From an uncultured virus (IMG/VR IMGVR_UViG_3300042558_003703) (Duplodnaviria > Heunggongvirae > Uroviricota > Caudoviricetes): a stretch of 64,000 nucleotides of DNA. The stretch lies in the IMG/VR virus record IMGVR_UViG_3300042558_003703. One strand, written 5' to 3'. Positions 1 to 43,273 of the stretch are shown in pieces (the stretch's first letter is position 1; every line of letters starts with the position of its first letter). Below the pieces are notes generated by a model, which saw only the letters and a list, made by a program, of their open reading frames with translations, made no database searches and was not told the origin of the DNA. Position numbers and translations under genes: made by a program.

Positions 1-3000
1 TCCTTGTGGGCCTTGTGGTCCTTGTGGTCCAGTTGCACCAGTAGATCCAATGGGTCCGATAGGTCCTTGTGGTCCTTGTGGTCCAGTTGCACCAGTAGAT
101 CCAATGGGTCCTTGTGGGCCTTGTGGTCCAGTTGCACCAGTAGATCCAATGGGTCCTTGTGGGCCTTGTGGTCCTTGTGGTCCTTGTGGTCCAGTTGCAC
201 CAGTAGATCCAATGGGTCCTTGTGGGCCTTGTGGTCCTTGTGGTCCAGTTGCACCAGTAGATCCAATGGGTCCTTGTGGGCCTTGTGGTCCTTGTGGTCC
301 AGTTGCACCAGTAGATCCAATGGGTCCTTGTGGGCCTTGTGGTCCAGTTGCACCAGTAGATCCAATGGGTCCTTGTGGGCCTTGTGGTCCTTGTGGTCCA
401 GTTGCACCAGTAGATCCAATGGGTCCGATAGGTCCTTGTGGTCCTTGTGGTCCAGTTGCACCAGTAGATCCAATGGGTCCTTGTGGGCCTTGTGGTCCTT
501 GTGGTCCAGTTGCACCAGTAGATCCAATGGGTCCGATAGGTCCTTGTGGTCCTTGTGGTCCAGTTGCACCAGTAGATCCAATGGGTCCTTGTGGTCCTTG
601 TGGGCCTTGTGGTCCTGTGACACCAATGGGTCCGATGGGTCCTTGTGGTCCTTGTGGTCCAGTTACACCAGTTGCTCCCGTGGGTCCTTGTGGTCCACCT
701 GCTAATAGGTTAGTGCCTACTCCTGCGGCTGCTTCTGTTATATCAATATATGCACCACGTACAGTACCGCCTTGCTCAAAAATTCTTATCTTATTTTGAT
801 AAGCATCTATAGTGATACCAGTTCCAGTGTATGTTGAATTTGCAGCAGGTTTTGCTAATAGTATTTCTCCACCTTCGTCACCTACACTGTTGCTCACTAT
901 AATCTGGGGTACTGTTAAAATAGTAGTTCCGTCGAAAGTGAAGTTAGCAGAGCCTGCTGGATTATTAGATCCATCTTTATAAACAACTTGATTGGCAGAT
1001 CCAGCTACTGGTCCTGTGGGTCCTTGTGGTCCAGTTGCACCAGTAGATCCAATGGGTCCTTGTGGTCCAGTTGCACCAGTAGATCCAATGGGTCCTTGTG
1101 GTCCTTGTGGTCCTTGTGGTCCAGTTGCACCAGTAGATCCGATAGGTCCTTGTGGTCCTTGTGGGCCTTGTGGTCCAGTTGCACCAGTAGATCCTGTGGG
1201 TCCTTGTGGTCCTTGTGGTCCTTGTGGGCCTTGTGGTCCAGTTGCACCCGTTGATCCGATAGGTCCTTGTGGTCCAGTTGCACCAGTAGATCCTGTGGGT
1301 CCTTGTGGTCCTTGTGGTCCTTGTGGTCCTTGTGGTCCAGTTGCACCAGTAGATCCTGTGGGTCCTGTGGGTCCTTGTGGTCCTTGTGGTCCAGTTGATC
1401 CAGTTAATCCTGTTGCGCCTTGCAAACCAGTGGCAATCAGCACCAAAATTATAGGAAGATCGTTGGCAAAGTTGGTAGTACCAGTTCCGCCAGAATCAAG
1501 CAGCGTTACCGGTACCTCTACATATCCAGTTTGCAAAGTAGGAGTGCCGTTGACTTCCCATTTTTGGAAGTTGTCACTCAATGCAGCATCCTGTATGATC
1601 ATGACGTCTTTGTTTTTCAACAAAGCCAAAAATACATCAATATCAATACCGTCAGCATCAATATGGCTTATGTTGATGCGAGTCGCATCAACTTGAGTAG
1701 CAGTACTCCAGATAATATCGCTATTGCCGGGATCACCGCTTGTGATACTGGTGTCTACCAAATAATTGTAATAGCCGGCACTTCCGCCGTCTTGACCAGC
1801 AGGGCCTTGTGGGCCTTGCGGACCGGTAGTACCTGTTAAGCCAGTTGCACCTGTGGCACCAATAGGTCCTTGTGGTCCTTGTGGTCCAGTTGTGCCTGTT
1901 AATCCAGTTGCACCTGTAGAACCTATTTCGCCTTGTATACCTGATGCACCAGTTGCTCCGATAGGTCCTTGTGGGCCTTGTGGGCCTTGTGGTCCAGTTG
2001 TGCCTGTTAATCCAGTTGCACCCGTTGATCCGATTTCGCCTTGTATACCTGATGCACCAGTTGCTCCGATAGGTCCTTGTGGGCCTTGTGGTCCAGTTGT
2101 ACCTACAAGGCCAGTCGCACCTGTAGAACCTATTTCGCCTTGAATACCTGACGCACCTGTGGCTCCGATTTCGCCTTGTGGTCCTTGTGGTCCAGTTGTG
2201 CCTGTTAAGCCAGTCGCACCTGTAGAACCTATTTCACCCTGTATGCCGCTAGCACCAGTTGCTCCAATTTCACCCTGTATGCCTGACGCACCAGTTGCAC
2301 CTGTAGGTCCCTGTGGTCCTTGTGGGCCTTGTGGTCCAGTTGTGCCTGTTAAGCCAGTTGCACCTGTAGAACCAATTTCACCCTGTATGCCGCTAGCACC
2401 TGTTGCTCCGATAGGGCCTTGTGGTCCTTGTGGTCCTGTAGTACCTACGAGGCCAGTTGCACCTGTAGAACCTATTTCGCCTTGAATACCTGACGCACCA
2501 GTTGCTCCCGTAGGTCCTTGTGGTCCTGTAGCACCATCTAATCCTGTAGCACCTGTTGCACCAATTTCGCCTTGTGTGCCACCAGCACCAGTAGCACCTG
2601 TGGGTCCTTGTGGGCCAGTTGCTCCATCAAGTCCTGTGGCTCCAATTTCGCCTTGTATACCTGACGCACCAGTTGCTCCGATTTCGCCTTGTATGCCTGA
2701 CGCACCTGTGGCTCCAATTTCGCCTTGTATACCTGACGCACCAGTTGCTCCGATTTCGCCCTGTATGCCTGACGCACCAGTTGCTCCAATTTCACCCTGT
2801 ATGCCACTTGCACCAGTTGCTCCAATTTCACCTTGTATGCCTGACGCACCAGTTGCACCTGTAGGTCCCTGTGGTCCTTGTGGGCCTTGTGGTCCAGTTG
2901 TGCCTGTTAAGCCAGTTGCACCTGTAGAACCAATTTCACCCTGTATGCCGCTAGCACCTGTAGCTCCGATTTCGCCCTGAATACCTGACGCACCTGTTGC

Positions 3001-6000
3001 TCCGGTAGGTCCTTGTGGGCCAGTTGTACCTGTTAAGCCACTGGCACCTGTAGCTCCGATTTCGCCCTGAATACCTGACGCACCTGTTGCTCCGGTAGGT
3101 CCTTGTGGCCCTTGTGGTCCAGTTGTACCTGTTAAGCCACTGGCGCCGGTTGCTCCAATTTCACCCTGTATGCCGCTAGCACCTGTTGCACCAATTTCAC
3201 CCGTAGGTCCTTGTGGTCCTTGTGGGCCAGTTGTACCTGTTAAGCCACTGGCACCAGTTGCTCCGATTTCGCCTTGAATACCTGACGCACCTGTTGCACC
3301 AATTTCACCCGTAGGTCCTTGTGGCCCTTGTGGTCCAGTTGTACCTGTTAAGCCACTGGCGCCGGTTGCTCCAATTTCGCCTTGAATACCTGATGCACCT
3401 GTTGCACCCGTAGGTCCTTGTGGTCCAGTTGTACCTGTTAAGCCACTGGCGCCGGTTGCTCCAATTTCGCCTTGTATACCTGACGCACCAGTTGCACCTG
3501 TAGGTCCTTGTGGTCCTTGTGGGCCGGTAGTACCTACAAGTCCACTAGCACCTGTAGCTCCAATTTCGCCCTGAATACCTGACGCACCTGTTGCTCCGAT
3601 AGGTCCTTGTGGTCCTTGTGGTCCAGTAGTACCTACAAGTCCACTAGCACCTGTAGCTCCAATTTCGCCTTGAATACCTGACGCACCAGTTGCTCCATCA
3701 AAACCAGTTGCTCCGACATCGCCTTGTGGTCCAGTTGCTCCATCAAGACCAGTGGCTCCATCAAGTCCCTGGAATCCAGTAGCACCATCGAATCCAGTTG
3801 CACCGTCAAGTCCTTGATCGCCTTGCATGCCTGTTGCACCAGTGGCACCAATCGAGCCTTCTCCTCCACTAGTGCCTGTAGCGCCGATATCACCTTGAGG
3901 TCCAGTAGCACCTACATCGCCTTGTATACCACTAGCACCTGTTGATCCTTGTGGACCTTGTGGCCCTGTAGTACCAGTTAGACCTGACGCACCAGTTGCA
4001 CCCGTAGGCCCTTGTGGTCCTGTAGCACCATCAAGTCCCTGGAATCCAGTTGCACCATTGAATCCAGTTGCACCGTCAATTCCTTGTTCGCCTTGTATAC
4101 CCGATGCACCTGTGGCACCTACATTACCCTGTATTCCGGTGGCTCCGGTTGCACCTTGTACACCTGATGCACCGGTTGCTCCTGGACCTGTAGCGCCATC
4201 AAATCCCTGTGGTCCTTGTGGTCCAGTTGCTCCAGTTGCACCTGCTCCGGTTGCACCGGTTGCTCCCGTGGGTCCTTGTGGTCCTTGTGGTCCCGTTGCT
4301 CCCGTGGGTCCTTGTGGTCCTTGTGGTCCCGTTGCTCCAATGGGTCCTTGTGGTCCTTGTGGGCCTGTTGTACCTGTAAGTCCTGACGCACCGGTTGCTC
4401 CTACATCGCCTTGAATACCTGACGCACCTGTGGCACCTACATTGCCTTGAATACCTGACGCACCAGTTGCTCCTACATCGCCTTGTGGTCCAGTGGCTCC
4501 ATCTACCCCAGTGGCTCCATCCAATCCTGTAGCACCTACATCTCCCTGTGGTCCAGTGGCTCCATCTAAACCAGTTGCACCTACATTGCCTTGAATGCCT
4601 GACGCACCAGTAGCTCCAATGGGTCCTTGTGGCCCTTGTGGCCCTGTTGTACCTGTTAGTCCAGACGCACCTGTGGCACCTACATCGCCTTGAATACCTG
4701 ACGCACCTGTTGCTCCAATGGGTCCTTGTGGCCCTTGTGGCCCTGTTGTACCTGTAAGACCTGATGCACCTGTTGCTCCAATGGGCCCTTGTGGCCCTGT
4801 TGTACCTGTTAGTCCAGACGCACCTGTGGCACCTACATCGCCTTGAATACCTGACGCACCAGTTGATCCTTGTGGCCCTGTTGTACCTGTAAGACCTGAT
4901 GCACCTGTTGCTCCAATGGGTCCTTGTGGCCCTGTTGTACCTGTTAGTCCAGACGCACCTGTGGCACCTACATCGCCTTGAATACCTGACGCACCAGTTG
5001 ATCCTTGTGGCCCTTGTGGGCCAGTGGCTCCGGCTAGTCCGGTTGCTCCAGCTAGTCCAGTTGCTCCGGCTAGTCCAGTTGCTCCAGCATTGCCTTGCAG
5101 GCCAGTTGCTCCGTCAAATCCAGTAGCTCCATCGAGACCAGTTGAGCCAATATCGCCTTGCAGGCCAGTTGCTCCTGTAGGACCTTGGGGTCCTGTAGTA
5201 CCTGTAAGTCCACTAGCACCTGTGGCGCCTGCACCTGTTGCACCTGTTGGTCCCGACGCACCTGTAGCACCTGTGGGTCCTTGTGGTCCTGTGGTACCTG
5301 CAGGTCCGCTGGCACCGGTGGCTCCACCAGGGCCTTGTGGTCCTTGTGGTCCAGTTGCTCCGTCAACAGCAGAAATTCCTGTCAACAGACTGCCGTCGCC
5401 GATATAGTAGTTGGCAGTGATATTGCCTGTTGCAGAAACATTTCCAGATTGGATGTTGCCGGATATGTAGGCGTTGTCCCAAGGATTAGTTATATTACCA
5501 ACGTCGGCACTGGCACCCAATGTTACTATTGGTACAATGTCTCCGGGCATCTCACTAGTACCAGACTCGGTGAATCTCCAAGTTTTAGTTATTCCATTGA
5601 CAACAATAAGTTCGATGTCAATGCCGGTCAAGCTGATTTGAGATTCTACAACACTGTCAGCATCAATGGATTGTATTCTAATGTCGGATCCGGGTGCGCT
5701 GACAAAATCGTCAGTGCCTTGTTCTGGATGACTGTGCCAATATGCACCGCCAGGCCCAGTGAGAAATTGACCCGATATAGTCCATGTGTCAGATCCAGAT
5801 GAAACAGTTAAATTTCCAGCGGCCAGATTGCCAGTATATGTTGGCAAATAATTAGCCACGTTGGCGTTGCCATAGCCTTGGGGCAGCCCAGTCAACTGAC
5901 TACCGTTGCCAACAAAATAATTTGCAGCAATATTCCCAGTGGTAATTACATTACCAGTTAAACTTCTTAAGTTTCCAGTATATGTTGGCAAATAATCAGC

Positions 6001-6457: not shown

Positions 6458-6784
6458 TTAATTGGGGGAGAAACTGCTCCCGCAACCACATGTTGTGGCC
6501 GCTTGAGGGTTTTTGATGCTGAATGCAGCACCGTATTGATCTTCTTGATAGTCAATTTCGGCACCTTGAAGATAACCGCTGCTCATGCTGTCCATGAGCA
6601 CACGCACACCTCCGAATTTCAGATCAAAATCGTCGTCGTTGACTTCTTCATCCAGGGTAAAGCCGTAGCTCATGCCCGAACACCCACCTCCCTGTACAAA
6701 TACACGCAGTTTAAGTGCTGGATTATTTTCTTCTGCTATTACATCATGCAGTTTGGCAATGGCATTTTCTGTTAAGGTTATCAT
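6458..6784 (-). CDS. erpA: A-type Fe-S carrier protein ErpA/IscA (HesB family)
   Basis: GGGCSGMSY and TCGCGSSF motifs, 108 aa. Confidence 0.92.
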
Positions 6785-7335
6785 AGTCTCTCGTTACAAA
6801 CGTCCCAGTCAATAATTTTCCAAATATTGTCCAGGTATTTTTCTTTGTCCCATTGGTAATCCAGGGCCCAAACGTGTTCCCACCAATCCACTAACACACA
6901 GATATCAGTGCGTACTTGATGATTTGGGATGGTTTTAATAGTGCCAGCTGTGCTCAAATATACCCAGCCGCTGCCCTGTACAGCCATGGCAGTTTTTTTA
7001 AATTCTTCTCGAAAGTCTTCGTAAGTTTTGAAGTGTTCTTCGATCAAGGCCAACACAGCACCCTTAGGGCGGTTGGCACCTTTTGGGGCACGTAGTTGTG
7101 GGAAGAACTTGTTGTGCAAGAAGCTGCCAGCACGGTTAAAGTTAGCATTGCCTTCGCCAGCATTGTAGCGTTTGGCATAGCCTTTGGCCAGATGCTCGTA
7201 GTGATAATTAATGCTGGCTTTGCTGAGCACAGGATCTAATGCTGTTTCGGCATAGGGCAAAGGAGTGGTTTCCAGCTTGGCTGGACGGGTGCTGGCTTCT
7301 ACTAAATCGATATCTTTGCGAATGGGTCGTAACAT
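6781..7335 (-). CDS. Fe/Mn superoxide dismutase
   Basis: [34 protein letters not shown]; the four metal ligands appear present. Confidence 0.9.
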
Positions 7336-7343
7336 ATAGATAT

Positions 7344-7562
7344 TTATTTTCTTTTTATAATACGTCCACGAGCAAGATCGTACGGAGAGAACTCAATCTC
7401 CACGCGATCTCCTGTTAGTATCTTGATTTTGTTTTGGCGCATGCGGCCAGAAATAACACCAATCACTACAGTTTGTTGTAGGTCTAATTGTACTTTAAAC
7501 ATGGCGTTGGGCAGTAGATCTACCACAACGCCTTCCAGTACGAATCCTGCTTCTTTACCCAA
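7344..7562 (-). CDS. infA: Translation initiation factor IF-1
   Basis: EGVVVDLLPNAMFKV...ISGRMRQNKIKILTGDRVEIEFSPYDLARGRI. Confidence 0.95.
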   Translation of the reverse strand: MGKEAGFVLEGVVVDLLPNAMFKVQLDLQQTVVIGVISGRMRQNKIKILTGDRVEIEFSPYDLARGRIIKRK

Positions 7563-8122: not shown

Positions 8123-8492
8123 GGCGCATGGTACTGATCTCAACCGCTTCCTCATCTGAGAAAACAGGTACTGCATTGCTCTTGTGCATAGTACCAATAC
8201 CTTTGACCTTGGTGCCAGTGTAGACTTTGTCGGGTGCTCGTGCTGCTACCCCTAGCCCGGTGTTGAGACTGGGAATGTGATCTGTTGAGCGCGGAATTGA
8301 TATTTTGGGCATCTTGCTGTTGGTAAAAGATTTTGAAAACACAGGCCTCTTGGGTGTATGCGTCTGCTTGAGTTGCTGCCAATCTGCTGCCAACTGCTCG
8401 TGTTGACGTTTGGCTTCTGCAGAAGCAAACTTGGGCTTTGCACGTTTTTTACCAGTGGTACTAAGCCAGGGACCTTCCAAATGCATCGACAC
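8115..8492 (-). CDS. Basic hypothetical phage protein
   Basis: Ends YTGTKVKGIGTMHKSNAVPVFSDEEAVEISTMRR; follows a sigma70 promoter. Confidence 0.7.
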   Translation of the reverse strand: MSMHLEGPWLSTTGKKRAKPKFASAEAKRQHEQLAADWQQLKQTHTPKRPVFSKSFTNSKMPKISIPRSTDHIPSLNTGLGVAARAPDKVYTGTKVKGIGTMHKSNAVPVFSDEEAVEISTMRRG

Positions 8493-8522
8493 AGGTGTGC
8501 TCCTTGTTAGTGATTATACTAC

Positions 8523-8551
8523 ATTATAACAAACAACACATTACCGGTCAA
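8523..8551 (-). promoter_or_regulatory. Sigma70-type early promoter TTGACC-N17-TATAAT
   Basis: -35 at 8551-8546, -10 at 8528-8523. Confidence 0.8.
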
Positions 8552-8880
8552 CCACGATCTAATAGGTCGATCTTGTTGGGCTTACCGTCCCATTCAACAG
8601 CATCGGGCAAGGGTTCTTTCTTTCTTGTAATAATGGACCAAGTCTTGGACAGTTCGGCATTGATAGCCAAAAAATGTCGTTGGTTTTCAGGCAAGTCTTC
8701 TTCGGCAAAGATAGCGCCAGCTGGACATTCGGGAACACACACAGCACAGTCGATACATTCCGAAGGATCGATAATCAAGAAGTTTGGACCTTCCTTGAAA
8801 CAATCTACAAGCTAAGGGCAGACATCAACACAGTCGGTATACTTGCATTTAATACAGTTTTCAGTTACGACGTATGTCAT
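8548..8880 (-). CDS. fdxA: 7Fe ([3Fe-4S]/[4Fe-4S]) ferredoxin interrupted by an in-frame 6-nt insertion TAG-CTT (recoded or pseudogene)
   Basis: [52 protein letters not shown]..., colinear with Azotobacter FdI-type ferredoxins except TAG (8814-8812) and CTT (8811-8809). SD AGGAGG upstream. Confidence 0.88.
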
Positions 8881-9661
8881 TGTCTGCCCTTGCCTCCTTG
8901 TTTAGGATTCCGTCCTTGTGCGGGACATACAAGTGTATGTCTACAAAACTTTTTAAACATTCAGTATAACCTCCAAATCTTTTTTTAGGTTTATATTTTT
9001 CTACAGTAGACAGAATTTTTTGTTCTGCTAATGCTATATTATACATGGTATCGCATACAGTGTCAACAACTTCAAAATCATAATGTGCAATGTATTTTAT
9101 ACGATCTCTGACATCTAATTTGGTAGTAATTCCAATTTTATAAAAATCTTCTGAAGAATTATATAAAAGATATAATGTAGCAGGAATATCTTTTTTATCG
9201 GGGTATCTATCAAAATAAGTGTTTATGAACCAGGGTCTATAATCACCGTGTTTCTTATCACCACATTTTCTACAACCATATCCTTCAAGGTGGCCGCTTG
9301 CGTTTTGATCAAAATCACCGTGTATAGGACAAGTTATTGTTACGCTAGATCGACTGTTGACATAATTTGTTTTGGTGTATGCATAAAAATTATTGTGCAA
9401 TTTTTCAGCTTTAGATATAAACTCATTATTGGTCATCCTTCGACGCAAAACGTAATCAGACCAATTATCTTTACATTGTTGGCAACCGGACCCTGATAAC
9501 AATGTTCGAGCATTTCTTTTAAAGACCCCGTGTAGATTGCAAGTTAGAACTACATTACTTCTTGTATTGATGTAGACTGTATTTGCATAATCATATCGAT
9601 CTTTATAAATTTCTTGGCACCTAGAGACAAATTCGTCCTGCGTTAGTTTTTTTGTAGACAT
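8861..9661 (-). mobile_element. Free-standing homing endonuclease: two Cys/His zinc-binding repeats plus a T5orf172/GIY-YIG-like nuclease domain
   Basis: Repeats YDY..TVY....V.LTC..HG.F.......G.GC..C twice; C-terminal LYLL...FYKIGIT...DRI...EQKI...GYTE. AT-rich, own TAAATA box, overlaps the fdx start. Confidence 0.8.
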
Positions 9662-9696
9662 AAAATTATTTATGCCGGACACACTTTAACGCAGTT

Positions 9697-10086
9697 CTAT
9701 TTTTGTAGAGTTGCCCACATTTTTTGTTTGGCCAACAAGTCTGCTTCTAATTGTCGGTACCGCGCACCGAGCTCACGCAATTCATTCCATTCAGATTCCA
9801 ATGCAGTATTTGGTGTCAATAAGTTGAGTCGTTCCTGTATGCCTTTTAGTGTGTCGTTCAAGCTGACGTTATTGATGACAATATCGGCGCCTTCACCTTT
9901 TAAATCTAAACGTCCGGTTGGAACAGTCGAATCAAATGTGCTGGTGATATTAATAGAGTCCAGGGCGTTTGTAGTATGCCAAACGTATTGGTCGCCTGTT
10001 AATGAATTTGTTGTTATCGAATTGTTTAAGGGCGCAGTACTTGTATACATGCTATCTGCAGAGTTAGAAAATAATGAATTAAACAT
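9697..10086 (-). CDS. Hypothetical protein with C-terminal coiled coil
   Basis: 129-aa ORF coupled to the upstream ORF. Confidence 0.65.
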   Translation of the reverse strand: MFNSLFSNSADSMYTSTAPLNNSITTNSLTGDQYVWHTTNALDSINITSTFDSTVPTGRLDLKGEGADIVINNVSLNDTLKGIQERLNLLTPNTALESEWNELRELGARYRQLEADLLAKQKMWATLQK

Positions 10087-10273: not shown

Positions 10274-10465
10274 TTATTTTGCAACAGTCAATGCTTCTTT
10301 TTCAGCAGTGATTTCTTTTCTGCGCTCTTTGACAGCTTTGGAAATTTCCTGCAGGGCCTTACGTGCGCGAGCAGCAGATGCCTTGATACCTTTGGTGGCA
10401 AACTTTTCGTTTTCGGCAAGATAAGTTTCGAAAGCGGCTTTGAGTTGGTCGTGATTTGCTGACAT
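10274..10465 (-). CDS. Histone H1-like protein (Hc1 family)
   Basis: EKFATKGIKASAARARKALQEISKAVKERRKEI; GGAG RBS and TTGACA-N17-TAAAAT promoter (10530-10502). Confidence 0.75.
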   Translation of the reverse strand: MSANHDQLKAAFETYLAENEKFATKGIKASAARARKALQEISKAVKERRKEITAEKEALTVAK

Positions 10466-26053: not shown

Positions 26054-26644
26054 TTAACGTTTACTAATAACTCGATCTGCTAGACCATAAGTCACAGCTT
26101 CGTCTGCACTCATGAAAAAGTCGCGTTCCATATCTCGTGCTAGATCTTCAAAGCTTTTTCCACCAGTATTATGTTGGTAGTAAATGCCGGTTAATTCTTT
26201 CTTCATTTTAAGGATTTCACGTACTTGAATTTCCATGTCTGTGGCTTGGCCACGGGCACCGCCCGACGGTTGGTGAATCATGTGTCTAGCGTAGGGCAAG
26301 ATCAAACGTTTACCTTCTGCTCCGGCTTGTGCCAACAAGGATCCCATGCTACAGGCCTGACCCATGACTACTGTGGAAACATCGCATTTGATAAACTGCA
26401 TGGTATCGTAAATGGCCATGCCAGCAGTGACTACTCCGCCAGGCGAATTGATGTAAAACAAGATATCGCGGTCTGGATCTTCTGACTCCAAAAACAGCAT
26501 CTGTGCCACAATTAGGCTGGCACTGTGTTCGTTGACATCGGTGTCCAACATCACAATGCGGTCTTTGAGTAGACGGCTATAAATGTCATAACTGCGCTCA
26601 CCTTTGGCGGTTTGCTCTACTACCATTGGAATCAAACTGGGCAT
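26054..26644 (-). CDS. clpP: ATP-dependent Clp protease proteolytic subunit
   Basis: [21 protein letters not shown], catalytic ACSMG / MIHQP / RDFFM. Confidence 0.97.
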
Positions 26645-29339: not shown

Positions 29340-29561
29340 ATGTTTAAAGCAATTAAAGAATTTTTCGCTGGAAAAAAAGCAGATGCAGCAGAACCGCAGG
29401 CGCCTTACAAAGTGGAAACACCTGTAGCAGAAGTTACAGAACGGTCTTCGGCTCCTGCATCAGAGGCTAAACAGTCTGCAGCTCCTGCGACTAAGAAATC
29501 TGCTGCTGCTAAAAAGCCAGCTGCTCGAAAGCCAGCTGCTAAAAAACCCACACCTAACTAA
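29340..29561 (+). CDS. Small Lys/Ala/Pro-rich (histone-like) protein
   Basis: AKKPAARKPAAKKP; TAAATA box and AGGAG RBS. Confidence 0.7.
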   Translation: MFKAIKEFFAGKKADAAEPQAPYKVETPVAEVTERSSAPASEAKQSAAPATKKSAAAKKPAARKPAAKKPTPN

Positions 29562-30564
29562 TTGCTGCAACAAACTGGTCGCGGGCGAGATTCTTCCCTT
29601 TTGATTCACATTGAATATCGAAGTTATCTGTAAATCCTGCGACCCATTCATTTACAGCCTGATTCCAATAAAAATCCGAATGCGCACGAAGTTTCTGCTT
29701 CTTGTATCCTGCAGCCAATAACGCAGGCATGTCCGGTAGTGTATTCGGATCGTGTCCTACCAATACATCTTCGCGACTAACGCTGTAATGCATAGCAGGA
29801 CGTACACCGCGCCAGGAATCCAATACACGCTTAACGCGATCCGAATTCGGGTCAAGATACTCTCCCTCTCGACACCAATGGTGGTGAATATCCAAAACAA
29901 TGGGAACAACATCACCAAGACTGAGACAATCATCTAACCCCCATGAATTTTCTTCGTTTTCGATTGTAATAGTATTCCTAGCTTCCGGGGAGAGGCGATC
30001 CAGGACACGCCTAACACCCTCGGGACCTTGACGCCCGCTGATGTGTACGTTGATTTTAAAATCTTGGAAACTTTTACCATATCCCATCCATCTAGCCATG
30101 TCTGCATGATACTCAAACTCCTCTATAGATCGTTCAACAATATTTTCGTTCACACTAGCTAGGACACAAAACTGTCCGGGGTGAAAACTCAGTCTCACTC
30201 CCAACTGTCTTGCTCGTTCGCCAATGGGTGCAAATATCTGTTCCAAGTGTCGTTGTACATCGGCCTGTTGCCACCACGCAATCCAGTCAGGTTCGGTGTA
30301 GCCTTGCAGCATTTCGCTGCCCAGGCGAACCATACGCAGGTGTTCAGGCAAACTACCTACTCGTTCAACCATGCGCAAGGCAGCGGCAGTATTGTGATTC
30401 ATAATGTCCCACTGACGCTGTTCTGCTTCGTTTTTGTGTTCACGTAGCCAACGCATGGTGGTACTGCGACCATTTAGGTCTCGGCTTTCGCTAGTGGGTT
30501 TACGGCCAGCACATTCCGCTGGGTGATCGATCCATTTACAACAGAAACCTACTTTACCCTTCAT
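29554..30564 (-). CDS. uvsE: UV-damage endonuclease UvsE/UVDE
   Basis: RLSFHPGQF, IENEE, VLDIHHH, MHYS, RAHSD, ESKGK. Confidence 0.92.
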   Translation of the reverse strand: MKGKVGFCCKWIDHPAECAGRKPTSESRDLNGRSTTMRWLREHKNEAEQRQWDIMNHNTAAALRMVERVGSLPEHLRMVRLGSEMLQGYTEPDWIAWWQQADVQRHLEQIFAPIGERARQLGVRLSFHPGQFCVLASVNENIVERSIEEFEYHADMARWMGYGKSFQDFKINVHISGRQGPEGVRRVLDRLSPEARNTITIENEENSWGLDDCLSLGDVVPIVLDIHHHWCREGEYLDPNSDRVKRVLDSWRGVRPAMHYSVSREDVLVGHDPNTLPDMPALLAAGYKKQKLRAHSDFYWNQAVNEWVAGFTDNFDIQCESKGKNLARDQFVAAIS

Positions 30565-36755: not shown

Positions 36756-36976
36756 CAGTACATTTTTTTGGGAAGTTCTTGGCTGCGCAGGTACTTTTTC
36801 CAGCGACTCTTGGCCTGTGCTGCTTTGACTTTTTTTCGTGTGGTTGGTTTAACAAAGGTTTCACGTTCGCGCAGTTCTAACAACAGACCTGACTCGCCGA
36901 TCTTCTTCTTGAACTTGCGCAGGGCACGTTCGATGTTTTCGTCGTTGACGATCACAGTTCTTCCTAGTAATTTCAA
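36755..36976 (-). CDS. rpsU: 30S ribosomal protein bS21
   Basis: NIERALRKFKKK...LLELRERETFVKPTTRKK. Confidence 0.92.
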   Translation of the reverse strand: MKLLGRTVIVNDENIERALRKFKKKIGESGLLLELRERETFVKPTTRKKVKAAQAKSRWKKYLRSQELPKKMY

Positions 36977-38199
36977 TCTATTTTCCTTTCAAGTACGGTA
37001 GGATTATTTACCTGGGTTTTATCGATCACTACACGATTAATTTTATCCCGTTGATACTGTTTTAAATGAAACATGTGAGGCATTAGGATGCTTTCTAATT
37101 CAGCGTGTAGGGCACGAGCACCGGTGCCAGAGTCCATGGCACGATCAACTACCACATCAACAGCATCTGCAGTAAATTCTAGTTCTACTTGATCTTGTTC
37201 AAACAGCCAGTGATACTGCTGTATCAAATTGTTTTTGCTTTGAGTAAGAATATTTCTAAGGTCAGCCCGTTCCAAGATATTCAAACAAACCAAGCCGGGA
37301 AATCGTCCTATAAATTCTGGAATCATCCCAAATTTTACCAAGTCATCCGGAGTAACTTTTCCCAACATGTCTTGCTTGGCCACATCAAGTTTTGATCCGA
37401 ACCCAATGGCAGTTCCTTGTGTTCGAGTTTTGATTATGTTGTCTAGACCGACAAATGCGCCGCCGGCAATGAACAAAATATCTGTGGTATCTACTTCGAT
37501 CATTTCGCCGCCTGGATGCTTTCTACCGCCGCTCGGAGGTACTCGACAAACAGTGCCTTCTACCAACTTCAGCAGGGCCTGCTGTACTCCTTCACCACTG
37601 ACGTCTCTAGTGATGCTGCTGCTTTCGCTTTTGCGAGCAATCTTGTCAATTTCATCAATGTAAATGATACCGCGTTGTGTTTTTTCAATGCTGTTGCCAC
37701 TGGCAGCATACAGTCTTGCTATCAAAGATTCAACATCGTCACCAACATAGCCTGCTTCAGTAATGCTAGTAGCGTCAGCGATCACAAACGGCACATCAAG
37801 GTATCGTGCCACTGTCTTGGCCAACAAGGTTTTTCCGGAACCACTGGGGCCAATCATTAAAATATTGGCCTTGGCTATTTCCAAGTCTCTATCAGCACTG
37901 GCAATATTTTTAATACCAAGCACTCGTTTATAATGATTTATAATTGCCACACTCAATATGATCTTGCCTTGATCTTGTCCAATCACATATTGATCAATGA
38001 ATTTTTTCAACTGCATGGGGTCTGCGTTCGGTACGATCTTTGTGTCAACTGAATCTGCTACAGCATCTTCTTTCAACAGTGTTTCACAAAATTCTACACA
38101 TTCATTACAAATAGCAACATCGTCGCTGACAATGAGTTTTTTTACTTCTTCTTTCTTCTTACCGCAAAAACTACAGACATGTTTGATTGCGTTTGTCAT
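36973..38199 (-). CDS. clpX: Clp ATPase ClpX
   Basis: CSFC...CNEC zinc domain, GPSGSGKT, EAGYVG, DEIDK, RKHP, IGF loop, GAR. Confidence 0.97.
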   Translation of the reverse strand: MTNAIKHVCSFCGKKKEEVKKLIVSDDVAICNECVEFCETLLKEDAVADSVDTKIVPNADPMQLKKFIDQYVIGQDQGKIILSVAIINHYKRVLGIKNIASADRDLEIAKANILMIGPSGSGKTLLAKTVARYLDVPFVIADATSITEAGYVGDDVESLIARLYAASGNSIEKTQRGIIYIDEIDKIARKSESSSITRDVSGEGVQQALLKLVEGTVCRVPPSGGRKHPGGEMIEVDTTDILFIAGGAFVGLDNIIKTRTQGTAIGFGSKLDVAKQDMLGKVTPDDLVKFGMIPEFIGRFPGLVCLNILERADLRNILTQSKNNLIQQYHWLFEQDQVELEFTADAVDVVVDRAMDSGTGARALHAELESILMPHMFHLKQYQRDKINRVVIDKTQVNNPTVLERKID

Positions 38200-42054: not shown

Positions 42055-42738
42055 TTATTGTATTTCAGGAAACAAACATTCTTGTATAAACAGTTGTACA
42101 TCTTCTTCACTAAGCCCAAGACTAACCATTACTTTTGGAGTATGTGGATTTTGCTTTTGATTTTGTGCATAGAAGTTCTGAGAATCTCGAGTGTTTTCGA
42201 CAGTGCCGCTTGTTTCGCCTACGCATTTGATATAATGATCGACCAATATACCTGCCAAACTAGCGATTTGATTCAGCTCAGTTTCGTCACTGACATTGCC
42301 GGCTGCAACCATGTGCGGACTAAAAATACGCTGTGCCCATTCTGGTAAGACTCGCTTCTTGTTCCACTCGTATCGGCTCACTTCTTTACCAAAATATTCA
42401 ATCATAGCATGATCAATATCGCCAGCAGGGCTGTAGTCTATAAAACAGCCGGTAATCTTGTTCTTGCCGGCTATGACATCAAATCCAAAAATAGGTGCAG
42501 GATTGTCCAAGTGAGGAAATACGCAACAGTGCATCATCCACAGTCCTCGTGTTTCTCGAGCGTCTACCACATCAATGTGTGCCCGACGATACTGACTGCT
42601 GGTCCACACTTTGTTGATCCAGCCTGGTTGATTGAATCGATCCATGCCGGGTTCTTGGATGATACTGCCAGAAGCATAAAATGCAGCTTCCAGCTGTTGT
42701 TCGATTTTAATCAGCGTGTTCCATACATTACTCTCCAT
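42055..42738 (-). CDS. pcyX: Ferredoxin-dependent bilin reductase, PcyX/PcyA type
   Basis: RRAHID...MMHCCVFP...PIFGFD...DYSP...LPEWAQRIFS...QKQNPHT; Asp where PcyA has Glu76. Confidence 0.8.
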   Translation of the reverse strand: MESNVWNTLIKIEQQLEAAFYASGSIIQEPGMDRFNQPGWINKVWTSSQYRRAHIDVVDARETRGLWMMHCCVFPHLDNPAPIFGFDVIAGKNKITGCFIDYSPAGDIDHAMIEYFGKEVSRYEWNKKRVLPEWAQRIFSPHMVAAGNVSDETELNQIASLAGILVDHYIKCVGETSGTVENTRDSQNFYAQNQKQNPHTPKVMVSLGLSEEDVQLFIQECLFPEIQ

Positions 42739-43273
42739 GGTGTAGGTCTCGCATCATTTTAATAGCATACTCAAATGCCACACGAGCCTCGTCGCCCAGG
42801 TCGTCTGTAAGTGTCTGGCGAATGGCTGTCTTCATAACATCGCCATTTTCAAAGTCATAAAACTTGCCACTGCTGATGTGTGCCACTTGCTTCTTGATAA
42901 TCTGTCCACCAAACAGGTCTCCCATGTGTCTGCAATACAAATGAGCTTTGACTAACTGTTTGCGGTCTGCATCATTTCCTAGCTGGTGTAGATAGGCTTG
43001 ATACTCTAAGGTAGCAGGAGTTAGATAACAATAGGTGCCGTCATCTAACTCCAAGAAATCTGCTAAAATACCTTTCAAGCGAGGAAGGCCCGGCATTGTG
43101 TCAAGAAAGCCTTGCCGTTTGCAATACCATTCAATAGGATCATAGATTGCCAGTAAGTTATACAGGTAGTTTTTGTAATCTTCTCGACCAATCTTGCCGC
43201 TGAGTAACATCTTAGCAAATGTTGTTGTTTCTGCCTCGTGATGGAGGTCTTTAGTAATGTCTTTTAGACTCAT
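42728..43273 (-). CDS. Biliverdin-producing heme oxygenase
   Basis: TKDLHHEAE proximal His, AHLYCRHMGDLFGGQII, FYDF, EARVAF. Confidence 0.92.
   Translation of the reverse strand: MSLKDITKDLHHEAETTTFAKMLLSGKIGREDYKNYLYNLLAIYDPIEWYCKRQGFLDTMPGLPRLKGILADFLELDDGTYCYLTPATLEYQAYLHQLGNDADRKQLVKAHLYCRHMGDLFGGQIIKKQVAHISSGKFYDFENGDVMKTAIRQTLTDDLGDEARVAFEYAIKMMRDLHHGE

Follow-up and report, generated by a model that had tools for sequence, protein, structure and literature searches.

A mobile endonuclease cassette in phage ferredoxin genes ends in a stop-containing insert that ribosomes may bypass

The window analyzed here is a stretch of 64,000 nucleotides from an uncultured virus (IMG/VR record IMGVR_UViG_3300042558_003703); it comes from a large phage with ribonucleotide reductase, tail and PAAR genes, and uses code 11. 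On the minus strand, translation of positions 8880..8548 yields a 7Fe-type ferredoxin that is intact except for one internal TAG and a leucine codon between a proline and a valine. The product matches 7Fe ferredoxin I/FdxA (the group of PDB 1axq and 6fd1) with an E-value of about 3e-45 and every motif cysteine present, and the CxxCxxxxCxxxCP and CxxCxxCxxxCP motifs together with the DUF3470 tail place it in the 7Fe FdxA family. Solved ferredoxin I chains align with it over the full length, with a two-residue gap exactly at the stop-Leu site; unlike those proteins, the window gene is broken after the CP motif. The initial annotation had read the minus strand as C-P-stop-L-V-D-C in an otherwise intact ferredoxin with exactly two extra codons, and translation and alignment bear out both points. 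Elsewhere the window holds host-like genes (6458-7562, 10274-10465, 26054-26644, 29554-30564 and 36973-38199), including those for an Fe-S assembly protein, a superoxide dismutase domain, IF-1, an Hc1 histone-like protein, ClpP, UvdE and ClpX. Positions 1-5800 form a G+C-rich repetitive coding region, which we take, by eye from alternate-frame open reading frames, to be collagen-like. An 11/12 match to the sigma70 consensus at 8523-8551 overlaps the ferredoxin stop codon and faces the next gene.

The features of the ferredoxin locus, in the order in which they are transcribed, are as follows.

9667..9696, minus strand: cassette left arm, in which a duplicate of the target half-site in ferredoxin (C-V-x-V-C-P-A-stop) leads into a CATAAATA box that precedes the start of the nuclease gene
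8861..9661, minus strand: gene for a putative free-standing homing endonuclease of 266 aa; the leader is encoded at its 3′ end, which overlaps the start of ferredoxin
9038..9066, minus strand: sigma70 consensus promoter inside the nuclease gene, 12/12 match, 186 nt before the ferredoxin AUG
8924..8941, minus strand: leader hairpin P1, 7 bp with a 4-nt loop; 3/7 pairs change on both sides
8903..8923, minus strand: compact pseudoknot; a stem of 4-5 bp closes a CGG loop, which base-pairs with CCG
8881..8897, minus strand: GGAGG, a 5-6 nt spacer and a 6-8 nt guide that ends just before the AUG and pairs with codons before the take-off Pro
8815..8880, minus strand: ferredoxin 5′ part, 22 codons, the last being the take-off Pro codon CCT; forms one long hairpin with the leader
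8817-8815 CCT, 8814-8812 TAG, 8811-8809 CTT and 8808-8806 GTA, minus strand: the junction codons
8809..8814, minus strand: insert TAG-CTT, the coding gap; register ambiguous by one base, TAG in 23/23 alleles
8548..8808, minus strand: ferredoxin 3′ part, from the Val after CP; derived from the host gene, with Fer4 and DUF3470 matches

The initial annotation treated the site as a stop-hop within a single gene. The recurrence of the insert upholds that reading in part, but the homing cassette and the covarying leader RNA had been missed: judged from its sequence context, the insert forms the right-hand end of a mobile cassette that runs from a target-like left arm through a DUF723/T5orf172 endonuclease gene with an embedded sigma70 promoter, a pseudoknot leader and a new ferredoxin 5′ end. 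We hold with high confidence that this cassette is real, recurrent, mobile and under selection. In profile searches of the putative nuclease, a candidate GIY-YIG-like homing endonuclease, DUF723 scores above its cut-off, while T5orf172 (18 bits against a cut-off of 20) and MUG113 (16.7 against 22.3) fall below theirs; the protein also matches the PHROG 681 endonuclease family (E 2.5e-39), and its nearest Atlas clusters carry the same families. About 67 full-length relatives with at least 52% identity stand among the 120 matches listed and most end in the leader-coded tail, which suggests that many more phages carry the cassette; in the cultured-phage collection all nuclease relatives are less than 60% identical, the best about 37%. 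Five of five viral loci with the nuclease lie upstream of a ferredoxin gene, four of them insert-bearing. The left arm is present in all seven alleles with a full-length nuclease gene and is a candidate for both operator and late-type promoter. The embedded sigma70 promoter matches the consensus at 12/12 positions in 10 of the 12 alleles that retain the stretch, at 11/12 in one and at 10/12 in one, and it occurs in 1/121 insert-free genes. One phage holds a second nuclease-like gene with NUMOD3 that abuts a remnant of the first nuclease (L131:1714-2511).

The same insert is found in other phages, many of them large and aquatic. An exact-pattern scan gave seven viral matches, four in ferredoxin genes; with the six bases left free, 19/27 matches were ferredoxins and all 19 read CCT-TAG-CYW; in metagenomes 13/13 matches were insert-bearing ferredoxins. 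The non-ferredoxin matches of these three scans (3, 8 and 0) were treated as chance and dropped. When any stop after the CP motif was allowed, 22/28 matches were ferredoxins, with TAG in 22/22, and the scan added two divergent phages with a five-base insert and one contig ending in the insert; a stricter site pattern gave one match. In prokaryote genomes 15/15 matches were not ferredoxins, and the cassette was seen in none of the seven ferredoxin records and two DNA matches of the cultured-phage collection. The insert is a minority state, present in 2/80 and 4/80 of the best viral relatives. Pooling yielded 23 distinct phage insert alleles, all at the same site and all with UAG after Pro, which were compared with 122 distinct insert-free ferredoxin genes; the nearest record, G001, is identical to the window over 1801 bases, may be the same assembly and was not counted as independent. 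The insert has 6 nt in 21/23 alleles and 5 nt, out of frame, in 2/23; TAG is followed by CTT in 13 alleles, CCA in six and CTA in two, and the five-base form reads CCG-TAGCG-GTA in the two divergent phages L131 and L172, both ferredoxin halves being intact in each. The initial annotation had proposed looking for recurrence as CCN-stop-CYN with conserved downstream coding, and this is what the 19/19 CCT-TAG-CYW matches, with intact downstream parts, provide. An assembly error and a recent pseudogene, two of the alternatives it had listed, are rejected on this recurrence, the same insert occurring in separate assemblies and the downstream coding being intact and conserved. A metagenome contig, L120, has a ferredoxin allele identical to the window's; compared with window positions 9696-8960 its nuclease is deleted, a deletion found in L003 too.

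Several lines of evidence indicate movement of the cassette between phages. Sequence comparison establishes insertion of the putative endonuclease gene into phage ferredoxin genes at the conserved VCP/VDC site, with the old 5′ end left upstream and a promoter, a structured leader, a new 5′ end and the UAG-containing insert of 5-6 nt brought in. In a tree of the ferredoxin 3′ part (a quick method, 140 rows, 91 columns) the insert label requires 13 changes, six of them forced by strongly supported branches, so that insert alleles are scattered among insert-free relatives, with filled and empty sites in near relatives. This distribution is what homing predicts, presumably through cutting of the empty site. 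Old ferredoxin 5′ ends are stranded upstream of the cassette in L004, L117, L102, L122 and L126. Three of these (L102, L122 and L126) share the same internal nuclease deletion despite different neighbors and different ferredoxins, which indicates that the defective cassette itself has moved. In one phage the leader and a nuclease remnant are kept and the insert is absent (L133:2608-2750); its gene is nearly identical to the insert allele L094, and the arrangement looks like precise loss of the insert by gene conversion.

The sequence brought in ahead of the insert folds into a conserved RNA. In an alignment of 18 of the 23 alleles, made without three near-duplicates and the two whose leader diverges, 94.7% of the cells are paired, compared with 26-41% in slid controls, and 9/23 pairs change on both sides; the covariation score was reached by 0/500 shuffles, counts that are not independent and are inflated because the alleles are related. 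The pseudoknot stem changes on both sides in 3/5 pairs; the CCG/CGG pairing is invariant in 18/18 rows and so carries no covariation. P1 is dispensable in some alleles, being lost in L110 and L160, where the deletions stop within a few bases of the 5′ edge of the pseudoknot, a coincidence that with n=2 is suggestive only. The guide pairs with the two codons preceding the take-off Pro, in a helix with 97.9% of cells paired and 3/8 pairs changing on both sides, and the mean leader-site duplex energy is -19.0 kcal/mol in the 23 insert alleles versus -6.3 kcal/mol (sd 3.3) in the 122 insert-free genes. Of the two strongest insert-free duplexes, one (-15.3 kcal/mol) belongs to L133, which kept the leader when the insert was lost; the other is that of L081, an insert-free phage in which the end of the upstream gene is strongly complementary to the same site (-24.6 kcal/mol), by chance or as a hint at the origin of the guide. 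The window leader and ferredoxin 5′ part fold as one long hairpin (z = -5.3; 0/200 shuffles as stable), while neither the coding 5′ part alone (p 0.09) nor the 60 nt downstream of the insert are more structured than controls. A second helix, between leader and insert, forms in most 6-nt alleles and is absent from the 5-nt alleles. A search with the RNA model gave a single match per record in 5/5 records, always at the ferredoxin gene; as coding sequence is part of the model, insert-free ferredoxins also score 37-70 bits. A scan of 8400-9900 with Rfam gave a single chance match, which scored 20 bits where the cut-off is 50. Another leader class, found at L107:2891-3039 and L172:2415-2562, keeps the guide, orders its stems differently and has an A-rich spacer; the nuclease relatives P0060 and P0062 end like it.

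The ferredoxin behind this leader bears the marks of a working gene. The nuclease is full-length in seven of the 23 alleles, a 3′ remnant in 13 and undetected in two, one contig being too short to judge; 15/22 scorable alleles have thus lost most of it, while the leader and both ferredoxin halves stay intact. Four cysteines are kept in 18/18 distinct 5′ parts, the second cysteine motif is present in 23/23 alleles, and 22/22 complete 3′ parts are open. Among the nearest pairs that could be measured, dN/dS of the 3′ part is 0.05-0.16; two further pairs give 0.48 and 0.57. Part of the divergence behind these values may be older than the insertion. The ferredoxin gene is single-copy in 5/5 records, all incomplete. 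These data bear on the possibility of a parasitic cassette that largely shuts down a dispensable gene, its hairpin doing no more than repress translation, so that ferredoxin is produced in small amounts or not at all. The hairpin does bury the start region, ferredoxin is an accessory phage gene, the insertions may be recent, and L133 kept the leader after losing the insert. We nevertheless regard silencing as quite improbable, given that the cassette brings a promoter, a ribosome-binding motif and an intact 5′ end and that open 3′ parts and cysteines persist even where the nuclease has decayed. The window also encodes a heme oxygenase adjoining a ferredoxin-dependent bilin reductase (42055-43273), and these possible clients of the ferredoxin likewise speak against silencing.

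If ferredoxin is made, the insert probably has to be skipped: a sense insertion would protect the site equally well, with no recoding required, but the fold allows none, as the invariant UAG and the lack of any insertion at the CP/VDC position in the 136 scorable distant homologues indicate (14/150 were not scorable by motif). The 5-nt, frame-breaking form requires in addition that the skip be independent of frame. Programmed ribosomal bypass of 5-6 nt is the best reading of these observations, and we give it somewhat better than an even chance. Under the bypass model the nuclease would cut insert-free alleles at VCP/VDC and the insert would render its carrier immune. A ribosome would pause when UAG enters the A site, its peptidyl-tRNA-Pro being paired with CCU (or CCG), whereupon the leader guide would zip onto the codons just behind it and favor a position 5-6 nt onward. 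The tRNA would then re-pair, often imperfectly, on the triplet before Val, and decoding would resume, yielding a ferredoxin with the consensus CPVDC. The ribosome-binding site lies hidden in the hairpin formed by leader and 5′ part, which would keep down the number of ribosomes trailing behind.

The energetics fit this scheme only over a short range. When pairing is allowed to within about 6 nt of the P site the folding gain is -9.7 versus -2.0 kcal/mol, and only here does it coincide with the hop; at 9 nt it is -3.7 versus -1.5 kcal/mol and at 12 nt -3.5 versus -2.8 kcal/mol. Such dependence on a short exit distance counts against bypass, as do the absence of gene 60 signals and a landing that is mostly non-cognate. 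The take-off/landing pairs are CCT/CTT in 13 alleles, CCT/CCA in six, CCT/CTA in two and CCG/GCG in two, so that the landing triplet is cognate for Pro in 6/23, would form G-U at codon position 2 in 15 and has a first-position mismatch in two. Between cognate and non-cognate pairings of guide and site the energy hardly differs (-6.2 versus -6.0), a further point against bypass. All Pro tRNAs among 115 phage tRNAs, drawn from four incomplete records, have the UGG anticodon. The initial annotation had proposed a bypass in which the tRNA re-pairs at near-cognate CUU. Bypass stands as the best mechanism, but CUU re-pairing is not the whole story, because the 5-nt form has GCG before Val.

A different fate of the same cassette would be a product that keeps two extra residues: with 6 nt by readthrough of UAG, with 5 nt by a -1 slip at the Pro codon. 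Either route arithmetically gives C-P-x-x-V-D-C with exactly two additional residues. Two different recoding events would then be needed for one cassette, since plain readthrough cannot repair L131 and L172, in which the 5-nt insert breaks the frame. Six database proteins do read CPQLVDC (P0133, P0134, P0174, P0260, P0281 and P0283) and would favor a tolerated insertion over bypass if they came from true CAG alleles. Most likely they are gene calls made with code 15: P0260 equals the window protein letter for letter with Q for TAG and its source contigs are at most 9.6 kb, while on 29 and 11 contigs of up to 118 kb the same 3′ part appears as a stub of 76 aa. A sense codon occupies the stop position in 0/19 ferredoxin matches found with that position free, and the uninterrupted distant homologues weigh against two tolerated residues as well. 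Readthrough also finds no helper in the tRNAs, a CUA anticodon being found in 0/115 (two anticodons unassigned), and TAG ends 8/59 long minus-strand open reading frames in the window. We therefore consider the two-residue product unlikely. An amber-reassigned (code 15) phage was rejected on the same 8/59 open reading frames and on the known window genes, which are open in code 11. The window's nearest record, 18% complete, gave no tRNA match.

Re-initiation downstream of the insert, which would make a two-chain ferredoxin of a 22-residue peptide and a separate 3′ part, like split nrdA or gene 39/60, had also been raised on the strength of a TTG at 8778. That codon is present and in frame in the window, and split genes that reassemble are known for homing insertions; it has no counterpart conserved across alleles, however, 9/23 having no ATG, GTG or TTG in the first 20 codons past the insert and start positions varying elsewhere. 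The Val codon after the insert (window 8808-8806), a potential start, is GTG in 0/23 insert alleles versus 37/122 insert-free genes. GTG may be avoided there because it could act as a false start when the hairpin places GGAGG nearby, or the bias may stem from a preference of the nuclease. With the re-initiation codon so disfavored, two chains are very improbable.

The insert could also leave the mRNA as a micro-intron of 5-6 nt, with the guide directing its removal and the leader RNA itself or a protein nuclease and ligase carrying it out; such removal would likewise be frame-independent. The guide duplex covers the site itself instead of lying behind it, the covarying pseudoknot leader lies at the 3′ end of the nuclease open reading frame, as the available text of PMC2988022 describes for group I introns, and a register with U before the removed piece and G at its end is available in 23/23 alleles. 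That register, though, converts Val to Leu or Phe, which is seen in 0/120 and 0/143 scored homologues, and its U pairs with G in 4/23 duplexes, with A in 12 and with nothing in seven. The leader is no exon splint, because in most alleles its pairing favors the insert over the 3′ flank, and the structure spans only about 60 nt with no Rfam family near threshold. We judge excision to be decidedly unlikely. A group I intron proper was rejected: a covariance model detects no catalytic core, U-G is found in only those 4/23 duplexes, and the register gives Leu or Phe for Val.

Beyond the bypass reading as such, the cassette may represent a new class of recoding in which a leader RNA with pseudoknot, GGAGG and guide, encoded in the nuclease gene tail, acts on a site 60 nt downstream and fixes the skip at 5-6 nt with little regard to whether the codons match, be it on the ribosome or through excision from the mRNA. 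We offer this tentatively, as a proposal with less than an even chance of being right; if it is, no natural coding gap would be smaller, and the element would be a portable means, dependent on a guide, of passing over a stop codon. Natural cases of programmed bypassing are very few, and the ferredoxin locus adds a second endonuclease-plus-gap cassette unrelated to that of T4 mobA/gene 60, which suggests that homing endonucleases can settle in conserved genes not only by way of introns and inteins but also, as a third general route, by recoding. The whole signal is shorter than 200 nt, and nature supplies variants of it that differ in landing (matched or unmatched), in gap length (5 or 6 nt) and in the presence of the second helix, besides one that has the leader and no insert; the forward drive of the ribosome and the codon matching needed for landing thereby become directly testable. 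Annotations do not reveal the cassette, because gene callers either cut such genes short or put Gln at the stop. We found no report of it, and no natural hop this short, in the literature searched, which was thin on subscription journals; the supplements of 10.1101/2022.08.31.505936 and 10.1101/2024.12.09.627546 may list further cassettes, and ferredoxin is not mentioned in the available portion of PMC12619734.

Comparison with known systems places the cassette beside T4 mobA/gene 60, of which the accessible text of 10.1101/2022.08.31.505936 gives the main features. There mobA carries the gene 60 insert, which blocks self-nicking. Both systems put a free-standing endonuclease into a conserved gene and supply a new 5′ end, both have a site-protecting, stop-containing insert (protection being presumed here) with UAG beside the take-off codon, and in both the nuclease is often lost while the insert is kept, with repeated independent insertions (10.1101/2022.08.31.505936). 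At the ferredoxin site the insert travels with the endonuclease gene as one mobile unit and UAG adjoins the take-off codon in every one of the 23 alleles. In contrast, the gap is 5-6 nt rather than 20-50 (10.1101/2022.08.31.505936), the target is ferredoxin and the nuclease is of the DUF723/T5orf172 type, and the new 5′ end would serve to make a complete protein, not a split enzyme. According to the same accessible text, take-off and landing codons of gene 60 homologues are always matched (10.1101/2022.08.31.505936); here they match in 6/23 alleles, landing is mostly unmatched, and a covarying guide and pseudoknot lie in the 5′ leader. A gene 60-type take-off stem-loop is absent, the take-off codon lying on the 3′ strand of the upstream hairpin with no consensus pairs starting there, and the gap is too short for a mini Shine-Dalgarno 5-7 nt before landing, which is likewise absent; the only conserved GGAGG lies in the leader, 5-6 nt before the guide. 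The nascent peptide, a source of signals in gene 60-type bypassing, is here under constraint as part of ferredoxin. Because matched codons, the take-off stem-loop and the mini Shine-Dalgarno were each sought and do not characterize the cassette, it is not a member of the gene 60 family, although on this analysis it would work like mobA and its gap.

In the part of a 2016 review that is available, no natural in-frame stop-hop is known, and synthetic E. coli stop-hops decode nine bases as one residue across a single stop codon (PMC5009743). The ferredoxin cassette would share with them the hop across one stop codon, with Pro-stop-Pro in six alleles; those were laboratory constructs with matched codons (PMC5009743), whereas the ferredoxin case is natural, conserved and mobile and has a 5-nt out-of-frame form. 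The I-TevI operator and the promoters embedded in T4 seg/mob genes, as covered in the open text of PMC2988022, offer a parallel in gene control. With the former the cassette has in common a target-like sequence over the nuclease's own promoter, here a candidate operator and promoter, and with seg/mob a promoter for the downstream gene inside the nuclease open reading frame; it differs from I-TevI in having no group I intron (PMC2988022). Pairing of the exiting mRNA has been proposed as the forward driver of bypass in the accessible part of 10.1101/2024.12.09.627546, and the ferredoxin cassette, with a strong covarying hairpin whose guide would pair just behind the paused ribosome, would fit that model if pairing can reach to within about 6 nt of the P site.
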